In this document: in pieces, positions 33,001 through 39,000 of the stretch | How the letters are laid out: each line of letters starts with the position of its first letter | Numbering within the stretch: position 1 is the first letter of the stretch | Source of the DNA: a virus | Lineage: Duplodnaviria > Heunggongvirae > Uroviricota > Caudoviricetes | IMG/VR virus record: IMGVR_UViG_2718218452_000012 | Length of the DNA stretch: 64,000 nucleotides | Reading direction: 5' to 3' (one strand) | Program-made: the position numbers

Positions 33001-36000
33001 AACTGGACCGCATGGGCCAACGACGTGCGCACAATGCGGATGCTGGATGGCAGAACTCACAGACAAATTTGTGAAATGTTTGGTCGGGTGCAGCGGGATC
33101 CATTCTGGGTAAAAAATATCATGAGTCCGTCAAAGCTTCGCGAAAAATGGGATGAACTGGTTATCCGCCTGGGGCGTTCGTCTGTACAGCGTTGTGTGAA
33201 TCATATTTCTGAGCCGGATACCGAAATTCCGCCGGGCTTCAGGGGGTAAGTGTTAATTTCTGGTCATGAGGTAATTTTCAGGAGGGCTTGTGGCAAAAGT
33301 TTTTACACAAGAAGAGCGGGAAAAAATTAAAGGGCAGGTTGTTGAACTCGTACGCCGGAGTGGGCGTGAGACGTTACGGCAACTGGAAGTCAAGACAGGT
33401 GCGACAAGATATCTGATGAGCGTTCTCGCAAGAGAGCTGGTTGCCAGCGGCGATGTATACAACTCTGGTTACGGGTTATTCCCGTCTGAACAGGCGCGTA
33501 AGGACTGGCAAAATGCCCGTAAAAAGCTCTCAAGGGCAAAGCTGAAGGAACCATCTGCGGTTGATCCGGACCTTATCTGGTCATTACCTGACGGAGAAAT
33601 ACGTCGCTACGACAGGCGTCAGAACATAATCTGTCGCGAGTGCCGGAAGAGTGAAGTTATGCAGCGCATACTAGCATTCTATCAGGGAAATGCTCGATAT
33701 TTATTGAAGTGATGAGATTAAAGTTTATTAGTTCAGATATTGATTGGCTCTTTTGTGGAGTAGGGTAGAGTTAGTGTGTTTGTCTGCTTGGTGCCAGCAG
33801 CGGATATGTTTAACAACAGAAAGCATTCAGCATGGTTAGTGGATTTGCAAAGTGGATTAGGATTTGAGAAACTTTGATGAAGTTGTAAAGCTTGTTTCTA
33901 TAAAAATAGAAATTTAACTAATAGTTAAACACACCTCCAGCTTCATTGAAAAGGATTATTAGCTATGATTGATCCACTTATTAGAAACTTACAGAGTGAT
34001 ATTGCACTACTCCAGCTTTATATCGCGCAACGCAAACAGGCAGGCTTTCATGACATGGAAAGAATAATTGAGTCATTGACCATCTTTATGTTTCGCGCGC
34101 TGAAAATGGGTGAACTGGTAAACATGAATCAGATTAAAGTTAATTTTCCCGCCATTGATTTAGCTGATAATAAAAACATGATAGCAGTTCAAGTTACTAC
34201 GAATGCAAGTCCAGCAAAAATTAAAAAAACTATCGAATCTTTTGAGAAAATAAATGAAATAGGAGAGAGTCTGAAAGATAAATACTCTACTTTATATATT
34301 TTTGGTTTTTGTAAAGCCTCAAGATACCTAACTCCAAGTTATTGTAAAATAATCGACCCCAGCTATTTCGTGAATGAACTTTGCGATAAAGCAGATGAAG
34401 ATATGGTCCAGGATATGATTGACGCCATTCGACGCCATCATGATTATACATCATTACATCCATGGAGTGATAAAGATTCACTCGAAATTATACTCAATAT
34501 TATTAATCGCAATGCAATAAAACATCGGATGAGTTGCGAAGGCAGTCTGTCTGATATGCTCACTGGTTTAAAAGAAATTAATGAAGTAATTACAAAAGGA
34601 ACAATTCAACGTAAGCAACGTTCAAAATCGATATCTGACTTCAAAGATCAAAGCATGGTGAAATTTATGAGAGGTGTAATGGATGATTTGTCTGTTATTC
34701 AAGCCATAGTGAACAAATCTAAAGTTAACCAAGGTGATATGGTTTATATAAGCCATGAAGATATGATTAATATTGATAAATTAAAAGCTAAAATAGCAAG
34801 TGATTCATCAGAGATTGCAAGGCTAAATAATATTGATATAACACTAAATGTTGTTGATTTATAATTGTCGATTTAGCAAAACAGAGAATGCTTTGAAAGT
34901 TTCACCGAGAAATATTTATTGTGAACCTCCTTATTGTTTATCGACTTTTACTCTCCGCTCATTGCAGTACTGTCGGAGAAGGCTACTATGTACAAGAAGC
35001 AGCTAACATAAGCGAGCATCACTATTGATATTAGGAAGAGTATATAAAAACTTCATGCTGAACCTTACAAAAGTAGGTAAACCGGCAATGGCCTAAGTGG
35101 CAGGGTCATGTTGATCCGGCACTGCCGAGCTAATAATTAACAAGCAAATCACTCTTTCTAATAATTTGTTGAAATAAACTAAATATGTATATGTTTACCA
35201 ACAACCACATATGAACTACCTGCTTTGCTCCATGATTTTATTATTTCTAAATTATTATCTGAGCATATTTTACTTACAGTATCCACATCTAATAAACCAT
35301 AGTAGAAAGCATTGCGAGAGTTTTGGTATATATACCCATGCAAATGTTTAATACCGCTCTCGTACCTCTTGAAATAAGAACTTTTGTATTGATTGACAAT
35401 CAGTGCTTCACCATCACTCTTTAATAATTCTCTAATCGCACTGAGGACTTTGTGAATTGTGGATTCACATGGAATTGCGGAAAGCACGTTTGCGCAAAGT
35501 ATGAAATCATAATGATTTGTTATTTTATCTATATTTTCATAAGAAACAATATTAGCATTCTTATAGTTATTTATCACGTAATCTGGAATCGTGGTTTGTA
35601 CACCTCTGATAATTTGCACTCTTTCTAGTTGTCTTCTGGAATCTAAAAATGTCACAGTTTCAAATTTATTTACTAATTGTTCTGAATATCTAAGTTTTCC
35701 ACATCCAAAATCAAGGGCATTGCCATTTTTATTAGTGCTTTCAATCTGTTTACAGAGATAGTTAGATGGCATAGTGTGCGGTTTCGCTGCATTTTCTGAA
35801 CGTATGTTTATTCCATTTATTTTGTAATTCAAAATCAACCTCGTTTAAAAAATATTGTTATTGTTAAAGAATTCTTTTATTTTGCTATCAGGTATTTGTC
35901 TTACTTGGCTTTCTGTTCTTGGTTTAACTGATGCTATGAAAATAAGGAAGTCAAATGCGACAAGAGAAATAATCCACAACCAAAGATTAATTAAAGAGCC

Positions 36001-39000
36001 AGTAACAGAGAATATATTTGTTAATTTGGCGATACTTATTATTAAAATAGTAACAAATGCGATTACTGTATGTTCAAAGAAAACCCAAAAGTAATAAACT
36101 TTGTTCCAGAAAAGTTCAACGTAATGTTTGTCTTTTAACTCTTTAACTTCTGGGTAATACAGTTTACTCATTACCTTGTGAGATTCATCAGTAGTTAATT
36201 TTCTCGTAACGCCTGCAATTTTTGCTAATGGTTTAATAATTAAATGACTATCCCACATCTTCCTTATTCCAATAATTTTTGCTACATTATTATGTAGATC
36301 TAAAGCTCCACTAATTACTGACCAAAAAACTGAAGATGCAATTGGTAATATGCCAAAGGTTAATATCCATTTAATAAATTCCTCGTAGTCTTTAACGGGG
36401 GGGATATACTTGGCATTAATGCCAACCAATGGCATGTAGCCATAAATGACTAATGATAGGTAAAATATAAATGTAGTAATAAAAGTCGCCTTATGGAGCA
36501 TAGGCAACATTTCATTATAACTCTTTGGTGGTTCTAACATTTTACTCTCCAAACACTCAAAAAAAAGCTAATCTTCTATAATAACGAAATTCAGCTGGCA
36601 CAATTAAAGATTAATTGCCACCAATTTCTTGATTTTATAATTTTATCTAAATGTTTTTGATTAATCTAGTCCTAAAAGAAACCTACTGCATAAATATTTA
36701 TGCTGATGACCCACTCCCTGTTCGTTAACACATAGCAACGTTAGTAATGCATCCTAAGTGATCAATATTTTTGCTAGCTTCATCTGCTCGCTCAAAGGGA
36801 ACTATAATGTTGGCTTGCGTGTGACTTGGCATGTTTAAAGAAGTGCTGGTGGTGACTGGTTGCTGTTTTCCATTTCCACAGAACAAAATCATAGAAACTA
36901 TACCCAGTAGTTGTATTGAATCACTGACGAGACAGCCTCATATTTATCAGGACTGGTGTACGTCCAATACAGGAGGTTGTGGTGCTGGTTCTCAAATGTG
37001 CGCTGGCTATTGCTGCTGTAATGGCAATTTATTGTCTTGCTGTTGTTCTTATGGATCACCTTTCTGATTGATTTCATATTGGCGAGGTAACGGTAGTTAA
37101 GTAGAATTGCTGCGGGTGCTTGAGGCTATCTGCCTCGGGCATCAACACCAAAGGCAGATAGAGAAAAGCCCCAGTTAACATTACGCGTCCGGCAAGACGC
37201 TTAACATTAATCTGAGGCCATATCTATGCTCTACACACGTAGGTTAGCCTCTTACGTGCCGAAAGGCAAGGAGAAGCAGGCTATGAAGCAGCAAAAGGCG
37301 ATGTTAATCGCCCTGATCGTCATCTGTTTAACCGTCATAGTGACGGCACTGGTAACGAGGAAAGACCTCTGCGAGGTACGAATCCGAACCGGCCAGACGG
37401 AGGTCGCTGTCTTCACAGCTTACGAATCTGAGGAGTAAGAGACCCGGCGGGGGAGAAATCCCTCGCCACCTCTGATGTGTCAGGCATTCTCAACGCACCC
37501 GCATTTAACCCGCTTCGGCGGGTTTTTGTTTTTATTTTCAACGCGTTTGAAGTTCTGGGCGGTGCCGGAATAGAATCAAAAATACTTAAGTAGCGCGCAG
37601 GGATAAGAGGGATGGACCCCGAACAGGGGAGTGCTATTTATCTGGAAGGATTCTGTTGATGAAAATCGAAGAATTACGTGAAATTTTTACTGAAGATGGC
37701 CTCTATACTGTGCGCGTTGAGAATGGTGCTATTGTCAGTCACTGCCGTATTAAATGTTTACAATCTAAACAAAGGAAGAGTGGAGCTGCGTTAATTTATT
37801 TTGTGGATGAACTTGTGACAGATGGTTTTATTTTGCGTGAAAATGAATTTGTCACATCATTGCAGTCTCTGAAAGAAGCTGGGCTTAAGGCTGGTTTTTC
37901 TGCTTTTGAAGATGAGTAAATTCATCTACAATTCAGCACAGGGCTGAACCCCTGTTGAGTAACACTGTGCCACCGGAGAAAACCGATGGCGCAAAATTCC
38001 AGACCACACAATTCTGATAATTCAGCCGTCTTTGCCAGCAGGCACGGGCGGCGTTCTCATGCATTCAAATATGACTGGTACCAGCATGACCCATGCACTG
38101 AAGAACAGGCCGAATGGCTGATTCAGAACTACCGCAGGCGTGGGTATGAGTTTAGGAAAGCCCTCAGCCTCGATTATCGTCACTGGATAATCTACGTCAG
38201 GCTCCCTTATTCCGAACGCCCACCGCGTCCGTCCCGCACATTCCAGCAACGCATCTGGAGGTAACGTGCGGGTATTACTTCGACCTGTTCCGGTACCGGA
38301 ACTTGGGCTGGTGGTCCTTAAGCCGGGCCGTGAATCCATGCAGGTATTTCATAACCCTCGAGTGCTGGTGGAGCCGGAACCAAAAAGCATGCGCGGTCTG
38401 CCGTCCGGAGTCGTTCCTGCCGTTCGCCAGCCGCTGGCGGAGGATAAATCATTACTGCCATTTTTCAGCGATGAGCGGGTGATTCGTGCTGCTGGCGGCG
38501 CTGGTGCACTGTCTGACTGGCTGTTGCGTCATGTCAAATCCTGCCAGTGGCCTCATGGTGACTATCATCACAGTGAAACCGTCATACATCGTTACGGTAC
38601 CGGCGCGATGGTGTTGTGCTGGCACTGCGACAACCAGCTGCGTGACCAGACCTCTGAATCACTCGGGCAACTTGCTCATCAAAACCTGTCAGCATGGATG
38701 ATTGACGTCATACGCCATGCAATGAATGGCACACAGGAGCGGGAATTATCTCTGGCTGAATTATCCTGGTGGGCGGTCCGCAATCAGGTGGCGGACGCGC
38801 TACCGGAAGCTGTATTACGTCGTTCACTGGGGTTGCGTGCGGAAAAAATCCGCTCCTTGTACCGCGAAAGCGACATCGTACCGGGAGAGCAGACCGCCAC
38901 CAGCATACTGAAGCAGCGCACAAAAAATCTTGCGCCGTTGCTTCACACCCACCAGCCACAGAACCCAGCACAGGAAAAGGCGGTGGTCAGCATTACCGTT

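Follow-up and report, generated by a model that had tools for sequence, protein, structure and literature searches.

The locus and its three genes

This work concerns an AT-rich stretch of about 3 kb (30-35% GC) carried by an Escherichia coli prophage between a DUF977 gene and a hok/sok locus. It lies in 64,000 nucleotides of DNA from the virus record IMGVR_UViG_2718218452_000012 (Caudoviricetes), which at its full length is called the window below. The GC content was 0.28-0.35 over approximately 33700-36900, against 0.45-0.55 in the flanking DNA. Three open reading frames (ORFs) were located in this island: 33965-34864 on the plus strand (299 amino acids, aa), 35179-35838 on the minus strand (219 aa) and 35845-36552, also on the minus strand (235 aa). 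The three genes are regarded as real because homologues of them were found in many taxa across Proteobacteria and because pairwise comparisons gave ratios of nonsynonymous to synonymous substitution (dN/dS) of 0.11-0.29 across all three, indicating purifying selection. An initial annotation, made from the sequence alone, had placed a low-GC island of three genes here, with the replication module on one side and hok on the other, and in these respects it agreed with the ORFs, the base composition and the flanking genes. Two motifs which it had quoted from the 299 aa protein, FPAIDL...IAVQVTT and R-x4-H, are present and conserved among the 34 family members aligned. Its statement that this protein belongs to no recognisable catalytic family did not hold, as Pfam, NCBIfam and the PDB entry 26bh all place the protein with the SMEK_N/Mrr-like group and RefSeq already names the SMEK domain.

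The 299 aa protein: a predicted nuclease with a family-specific C-terminal domain

The gene at 33965..34864 (plus strand) encodes RefSeq WP_000566848.1, 'SMEK domain-containing protein', referred to here as SMEK-300. Residues 1-130 (33965..34354, plus strand) form a SMEK/Mrr-like domain of the PD-(D/E)xK nuclease type, and residues 131-299 (34355..34861, plus strand) a helical C-terminal domain specific to the family. The N-terminal part matched SMEK_N (Pfam PF21941) with 79.9 bits against a cutoff of 27 over residues 5-120, and the protein matched NCBIfam NF033859 with 105.1 bits against a cutoff of 30. The PADLOC model of the Argonaute-associated restriction endonuclease matched with E=1e-20, over residues 8-146 only. 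A profile built from 34 members of the SMEK-300 family matched PDB chain 26bh_D at residues 20-139 (E=8e-13), 26bh being the solved 'Mrr domain from Kordia jejudonensis Mrr-APAZ pAgo'. Five residues, E36, D65, Q76, T78 and K85, with codons within 34070-34219, are invariant in the family; three of them (D65, Q76 and T78) fall in the NFPAIDL...IAVQVTT block, and acidic and Lys residues of the catalytic type are kept on an alpha-beta-beta-beta-alpha-beta core. On these sequence criteria the N-terminal domain belongs to the SMEK_N/Mrr-like PD-(D/E)xK nucleases, and nuclease activity is predicted for it. SMEK has been described as an Mrr-like PD-(D/E)xK nuclease effector that is fused to APAZ in short Argonaute systems and to LmuA in short Lamassu systems (PMC10810196; bioRxiv 10.1101/2023.06.08.544223; PMC12205087; PMC12663957).

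The SMEK-300 family comprised 108 clusters from Gamma-, Beta- and Alphaproteobacteria, nearly all of about 300 aa. Since these align end to end, the C-terminal 170 residues are an integral part of the family. The gene showed dN/dS values of 0.14-0.29. Within the helical C-terminal domain, P166, D169, R182, A184, E192, G193, G212 and K221 are invariant. The domain contains an RNAIKH motif (R182-N-A-I-K-H187, encoded at 34508-34525), of which the Arg is invariant and the His is kept in at least 90% of the 34 members. The active-site signature of HEPN ribonucleases is R-phi-xxx-H. The RNAIKH sequence fits this signature, so that the C-terminal domain may hold a second, RNase site, which is put forward here as a lead from the motif.

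The methyltransferase and the membrane protein

The middle gene encodes a class I S-adenosylmethionine (SAM)-dependent methyltransferase. Its likely start is the second TTG, at 35832, with GAGG 6 nt upstream and an N-terminus (MNYK...) as in the homologues, which is also the RefSeq call. The gene accordingly spans 35179..35832 on the minus strand (the ORF extends to 35838) and gives a protein of 217 aa. BLASTP aligned it over its full length with YmfD of E. coli K-12 (b1137) at 68% identity (E=2e-113), and one record named ymfD came up in the profile search. Among Pfam models it matched Methyltransf_12 (35 bits, cutoff 30), Methyltransf_23 (34.2 bits, cutoff 27) and TehB (24.4 bits, cutoff 20.4). 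The NCBIfam equivalog cutoffs for TehB were not reached, with 29 bits against 303 for PRK12335 and 28 against 218 for PRK11207. Motif I (L42-D-F-G-C-G47) and D66 are invariant, and dN/dS was 0.28. The DNA methyltransferase motifs (D/N/S)PP(Y/F/W), PCQ and QRR were absent by regular-expression search from all 9 family members (213-221 aa); a lone ENV tripeptide was seen in one of the nine, at locus L035 (loci compared with the window are designated by L and a number). The segment NVLSAIPC after beta-4 (N117-C124) is invariant including its Pro-Cys and aligns with the LHxVPD region of small-molecule methyltransferases, and the N-terminal IRSENAAKPHTMPS motif is likewise invariant. According to published work, ymfD is not the sole source of m6A in the mRNA of K-12.

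The gene upstream of it on the same strand encodes a membrane protein. With the likely ATG start at 36540, preceded by GGAG, it occupies 35845..36540 on the minus strand (ORF to 36552), and the product of 231 aa is the one called in RefSeq. BLASTP gave a full-length match to K-12 YmfE (b1138) at 60% identity (E=1e-108). An exhaustive profile search returned 209 clusters of YmfE-family proteins at 50% identity, all of about 230-245 aa. Four hydrophobic segments were found in the protein, and its central loop (residues 85-150), a helical insert, is rich in K/R. It is predicted to be an inner-membrane protein with four transmembrane (TM) segments and with this basic insert on the cytoplasmic side. 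The AlphaFold2 model was all-helical, with a predicted local distance difference test score (pLDDT) of 88 and a predicted template modelling score (pTM) of 0.82. A dN/dS of 0.11-0.15 was found. Searches brought up no family match, no fold match and no similarity to TehA or other transporters. There was likewise no Pfam or PADLOC match to SLATT or two-TM effector models.

The ymfE-ymfD pair as a module

The two minus-strand genes of the island are, by sequence comparison, homologues of the ymfE-ymfD pair of e14, a cryptic prophage of K-12. In the window both genes are on the minus strand, and the ymfE-like gene immediately precedes the methyltransferase gene with a gap of 12 nt; the spacing is 0 nt in K-12 and in L015, and the genes overlap by 17 nt in Microbulbifer. 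The two genes were adjacent in every locus examined, and even where the methyltransferase homologue has no more than 43-47% identity, as in Vibrio cholerae, Pseudomonas and Microbulbifer, a gene of the YmfE family lies directly upstream (hmmsearch E=6e-68, 1e-91 and 6e-15, respectively). The pair is thus a conserved two-gene module, and its genes are probably translationally coupled.

In e14 (L041, NC_000913.3 1196867-1199588) ymfE and ymfD abut and stand beside lit, the gene of the classic T4-exclusion protease. Single-gene exclusion proteins were repeatedly seen adjoining the pair, Lit in e14 and, in the window, a SMEK nuclease of almost equal size; Lit was considered as a relative of SMEK-300 and found to be unrelated. 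The e14 pair is one of many that have no SMEK gene. Others stand at the ogr end of P2-like prophages (Enterobacter asburiae, Providencia), and further ones were found in E. cancerogenus, on an element that carries a relaxase gene and at the IMG/VR loci L033, L035, L036 and L038 (73-86% identity; L033, L035 and L036 at 79-86% at the amino acid level). A Pseudomonas island also has the pair without SMEK, adjoining the Hachiman genes HamA and HamB. An ORF of about 300 aa near the pair in Enterobacter asburiae was compared with SMEK proteins and is not one of them.

In Vibrio cholerae GCA_026768395.1 (L042, 5318-6651) the pair, at 42% and 45% identity and again without SMEK, is set among ParE/ParD, Phd and DUF3709 genes. 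This setting resembles a chromosomal integron cassette array, and the pair may have been mobilised there as a cassette. At L037 (4534-6528, IMGVR_UViG_2531839474_000007) residues 1-58 and 52-227 of the ymfE-like protein match about 1.3 kb apart, which suggests that the gene was interrupted by an insertion; this contig ends short of the position where a SMEK gene would stand. A scan of species-representative genomes with the YmfE alignment returned 3 loci only, two of them on E. coli contigs probably placed in the wrong bins. Two short contigs of 2.6 and 3.0 kb, L071 (from a metagenome-assembled genome, MAG, labelled 'uncultured Haemophilus sp.') and L072 (MAG 'Candidatus Scatousia excrementigallinarum'), encode proteins with 99.5-100% identity to their counterparts in the E. 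coli island, and they are probably misbinned fragments of Enterobacteriaceae.

SMEK-300 in other company

The nuclease gene in turn was found without the pair in Pseudomonas (68% identity), Cupriavidus (50%), Vibrio (45%) and a phage (82%). In the phage locus (L070, 5001-7381, IMGVR_UViG_2609460173_000006) it lies among tail genes, and in place of the ymfE-ymfD pair it is convergent with a gene for a 440 aa DUF4062 (TIR-like) protein. In Pseudomonas GCA_045277175.1 (L002, 6001-9736) the SMEK-300 gene is followed on the same strand by three genes, which encode a protein of 219 aa, a SLATT_5 protein and a further protein of 309 aa. The 219 aa protein has an RNKIAH motif of the HEPN type and weak HEPN matches, and the SLATT_5 membrane protein matched the PADLOC models of SLATT proteins associated with reverse transcriptases. 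These genes, which adjoin an integrase-like gene, may together make up a separate defence cluster of four genes. In Cupriavidus the SMEK-300 gene has helicase, DUF87 and SymE genes as neighbours, and in Vibrio it is followed by a gene for an Abi_alpha protein.

Homology between these neighbours and the other two island proteins was considered and not found, either for the Pseudomonas 219 aa and SLATT_5 proteins or for the Vibrio Abi_alpha protein; the ymfE-like protein in particular showed no similarity to the SLATT_5 neighbour. An hhalign comparison of the SMEK-300 C-terminal domain with the HEPN-like Pseudomonas neighbour was negative as well.

Limits of the two halves and of the joint block

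Each half of the island has discrete ends of homology. Among loci with one module only, similarity to the window on the SMEK side ends at 34854 (L070), and on the pair side it starts at 35096/35104 (L033, L035), the respective segments being 33841-34854 and 35096/35104-36688/36704. These limits leave about 240 bp of the spacer (34855-35095) that were therefore seen only in the three-gene block. The whole spacer between the convergent genes, 34865..35178, is homologous along its length in five aligned three-gene copies (alignment A5), with a mean column identity of 75%. In E. coli SLK172 (L074, 2536-3434) a one-base frameshift splits the SMEK gene into ORFs of 95 aa and 149 aa and the pair is intact. 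Several other E. coli hits (H22-H25, H43 and H57) carry an additional 'hypothetical protein' annotation and may have the same split.

Where the modules are joined, the SMEK gene, the convergent spacer and the ymfD-like and ymfE-like genes make up an inherited unit, which the blastn end points and the GC content place at 33790..36706. The end points (33786/33793 to 36706) are identical in four diverged copies, L015, L061, L062 and L065, which have 83-86% nucleotide identity to the window and differ in their flanking contexts.

The insertion slot and its flanks

The left flank outside the island is the DUF977 gene of the prophage replication region (33290..33712, plus strand; Pfam DUF977, E=2e-30; also in RefSeq). 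On the right lies a hok/sok type I toxin-antitoxin locus (37114..37438, plus strand; Rfam, Pfam and RefSeq), consisting of hokD (37283-37438; Pfam HOK_GEF, E=3e-23; RefSeq hokD) and the sok RNA (37114-37288), which the Rfam model RF01794 matched with 114 bits. Comparison of the window with itself showed that an inverted sister arm, arm A, has the replication region in common with the arm carrying the island (24086-26065 corresponding to 33649-31670) and that the region past hok is also common to both arms (18733-20766 corresponding to 39315-37269). The syntenic slot of arm A, 20766-24086, has none of the island genes and contains different cargo over about 3.3 kb, namely relB/relE (21111-21350 and 20824-21111, minus strand), a flxA-like gene (21883-22215) and an insertion sequence (IS) transposase of 446 aa (22652-23992). 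With the slot filled in this way there is no empty site, and the DUF977/hok junction is therefore a slot at which cargo is exchanged; the DUF977/hok-sok junction of lambdoid prophages is a hotspot of such exchange. No terminal repeats bounding the island were found in a repeat search, and scans for promoter and terminator consensus sequences gave matches at or below the number expected from shuffled sequence.

Several further points of the initial annotation can be judged from these results. It had treated the island as cargo at a variable locus of the prophage, and this, with horizontal acquisition of the cargo, is borne out. The extent which it gave, 33750-37080, contains the island, and the inherited unit is slightly narrower. 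The island is absent from arm A, as had been said, in the sense that the genes are missing there; the place itself is occupied by the relB/relE, flxA-like and IS cargo. The proposal that the three genes constitute one system was not sustained, as the pair corresponds to ymfE-ymfD and occurs alone and SMEK-300 also occurs alone or with other neighbours. To call the genes undescribed was an overstatement, given that all three belong to named, uncharacterised families and already bear those names in RefSeq. What is new is the architecture, in which a SMEK nuclease stands alone and is joined to a novel C-terminal domain; the pair is known and uncharacterised.

Discussion

Because each half occurs alone and with homology ends of its own, the island is interpreted as a composite of two independent modules, each with the function proposed for it below, in a variable cargo slot of lambdoid prophages, and we hold this to be rather probable. 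On this view the two modules became joined in one enterobacterial lineage (E. coli and close relatives) and are now transferred together as a block of 2.9 kb. It is plausible that both are anti-phage cargo. Lit, Hachiman, Abi_alpha, SLATT, HEPN-like, DUF4062 and ParDE-cassette genes make up defence-like company for the modules elsewhere, in line with the initial annotation, which had suspected cargo of the defence type that it could assign to no described system.

A number of observations weigh against the composite interpretation or against the functions attached to it. The SMEK and pair probes matched the same 151 of 5426 complete E. coli genomes, at 154 places, and never apart; five of the 151 carry a copy of the block that is about 87% identical, and in strain ECO21 this diverged copy lies in another prophage context. 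In different prophages the ends of the block have stayed fixed and its spacer homologous, at an identity of 83-86%. Such co-occurrence in E. coli and such a fixed block are compatible with functional cooperation of the modules. The evidence from neighbourhoods comprises about a dozen contexts and is not a statistical survey, and neither module was recognised as a system by any PADLOC model. The C-terminal domain of SMEK-300, searched alone as a profile against Pfam and the PDB, gave nothing meaningful and no HEPN, sensor or APAZ match, and in the AlphaFold2 model the RNAIKH motif lies, with moderate confidence, at a helix end and in a loop, not at the start of a helix. The nearest solved relatives of the methyltransferase are small-molecule enzymes of the TehB type (the PDB TehB profile match is weak, E=8.5e-4). 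A ymfD knockout of K-12 had no growth defect, and deletion of ymfD in K-12 lowered early biofilm formation (PMC3105296). A non-defence role of the pair in metabolism or the envelope, by methylation of a small molecule or lipid, is a serious and possible alternative, because the relatives of YmfD are small-molecule enzymes and the knockout had a biofilm phenotype only.

The linkage in E. coli could mean that the three genes form one system, in which SMEK-300 is the effector and YmfE/YmfD regulates it, serves as its antidote or acts as its sensor. Infection might, for instance, be detected by the membrane protein, and the methyltransferase might protect either the nuclease or its target. The two halves are together in 151 of the 151 E. 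coli genomes that carry them, four diverged copies agree in their block ends and convergent spacer in spite of different contexts, and the SMEK and methyltransferase genes have diverged equally at synonymous sites between two copies (dS 0.32 and 0.33), all of which would be expected of a single system. However, the pair stands alone at a comparable divergence (L033, L035 and L036) as well as at greater distances, in e14, P2-like prophages, Vibrio, Pseudomonas and Microbulbifer, and SMEK-300 without the pair has unrelated neighbours both at 82% identity in L070 and at 45-68%. In addition, the convergent genes must be separate transcription units, and SLK172 has retained the pair beside a frameshifted SMEK gene. 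Given these observations we consider a single system quite unlikely. The convergence of a nuclease gene with a methyltransferase gene is also a common layout of restriction-modification loci, and the SMEK domain has a restriction-endonuclease fold, so that SMEK-300 might restrict DNA and the methyltransferase protect that of the host. This reading was rejected as highly improbable: the methyltransferase and its eight homologues, of about 217 aa, have neither amino-methyltransferase, PCQ or QRR motifs nor a target-recognition domain, their profile neighbours are small-molecule methyltransferases, the methyltransferase is always coupled to the membrane protein instead of to the nuclease, and the nuclease is widespread without any methyltransferase.

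The modules could also be unconnected in another way, SMEK-300 being an Mrr-type enzyme of modification-dependent (Type IV) restriction and the pair a non-defence moron, similar to TehA/TehB, that methylates a small molecule, lipid or quinone and thereby affects the envelope and biofilm or serves in detoxification. The homology of the nuclease domain to the Mrr family fits with this, as do the biofilm effect of the ymfD deletion, the position of the Vibrio copy among cassette genes of metabolic or detoxification families, and TehB as the best relative of the methyltransferase in solved structures and in NCBIfam, below the family cutoffs. In contrast, the SMEK-300 C-terminal domain has no recognised fold of a modified-DNA reader, and there is no relation of YmfE to TehA or to any transporter family. 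The similarity to TehB is generic to class I methyltransferases, and among the neighbours of the pair defence or toxin genes outnumber metabolic genes. This explanation is regarded as unlikely.

Under the composite interpretation, SMEK-300 would be a restriction or abortive-infection device made of one protein. By analogy with the SMEK effectors of prokaryotic Argonaute and Lamassu systems, its C-terminal domain could sense an infection cue or control self-association and so license non-specific DNA cleavage by the N-terminal domain, and the RNAIKH site might add an RNase activity. In the pair, YmfE could tether or gate YmfD at the inner membrane, the two proteins acting as a single unit for methylation at the membrane. 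Given the mobile distribution of the pair in defence islands, the function that we would guess first is phage exclusion or addiction. That both modules are anti-phage devices of undescribed kinds, ymfED being a widespread defence or addiction pair and SMEK-300 an abortive-infection nuclease, possibly a DNase combined with a HEPN-like RNase, is a possibility which we regard as real and at present doubtful. If it is true, ymfED would combine a SAM methyltransferase not acting on DNA with a dedicated four-TM partner, a combination that is not among the described systems.

The SMEK domain, discussed so far as an effector of short Argonaute and Lamassu systems, also exists as a compact family of about 300 aa, and ymfE-ymfD appears here as a conserved mobile module that has spread among Gammaproteobacteria in prophages, defence islands and cassettes of an integron-like kind. 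Literature searches brought up no functional study of the accessions concerned, of stand-alone SMEK proteins, or of ymfD and ymfE beyond incidental phenotypes. If the predictions hold, they provide a functional hypothesis for ymfE-ymfD of K-12, long uncharacterised beside Lit. Should both modules prove to be without a phenotype, the island is nothing more than the usual baggage of a prophage.

Comparison with known systems

The closest resemblance of SMEK-300 is to the SMEK/Mrr-APAZ protein of the short Argonaute system of Kordia jejudonensis (26bh). The N-terminal 130 residues are homologous (E=8e-13), and the two agree in the core NFPAIDLAD...VA(V/F)Q(V/I)T(T/S)...K as well as in the fold, predicted to be that of a restriction endonuclease. 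The C-terminal 170 residues of SMEK-300, in contrast, are an unrelated helical domain. Unlike the short Argonautes of the SPARDA type, SMEK-300 stands alone, without APAZ and without an Argonaute gene nearby, its neighbours being DUF977, ymfD-like, ymfE-like and hok genes. LmuA of short Lamassu (PMC12663957) is a defence protein that carries this nuclease effector domain N-terminally too, but SMEK-300 does not have the LmuA C-terminal region, and no LmuB SMC-like or LmuC gene is adjacent to the island, either among the ORFs of the surrounding DNA or in the RefSeq annotation. SMEK-300 bears some resemblance to the HEPN ribonucleases in that its C-terminal domain is helical and contains R182-N-A-I-K-H187; no HEPN profile or structure matched. 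As a small stand-alone effector combined with a family-specific domain, of low GC and in variable slots, it is like the single-gene abortive-infection and restriction nucleases (Lit, Mrr, Shedu-type), from which it differs in having no sequence relation to Lit and no match to a PADLOC single-gene model.

The membrane protein and methyltransferase recall TehA/TehB in that two genes encode a membrane protein and a small class I methyltransferase. However, the methyltransferase reached 28-29 bits against cutoffs of 218-303, and the four-TM YmfE is dissimilar to the ten-TM TehA. The pair agrees with ymfE-ymfD of e14 (b1138-b1137) in gene order, tight spacing, location in a prophage and the presence of a single-gene neighbour of about 300 aa, which is Lit in e14. 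It differs in that the window has a diverged paralogous copy, situated in a lambdoid prophage, and in the orientation of the neighbour, SMEK being convergent with ymfD in the window whereas the Lit protease gene is divergent from ymfE in e14.

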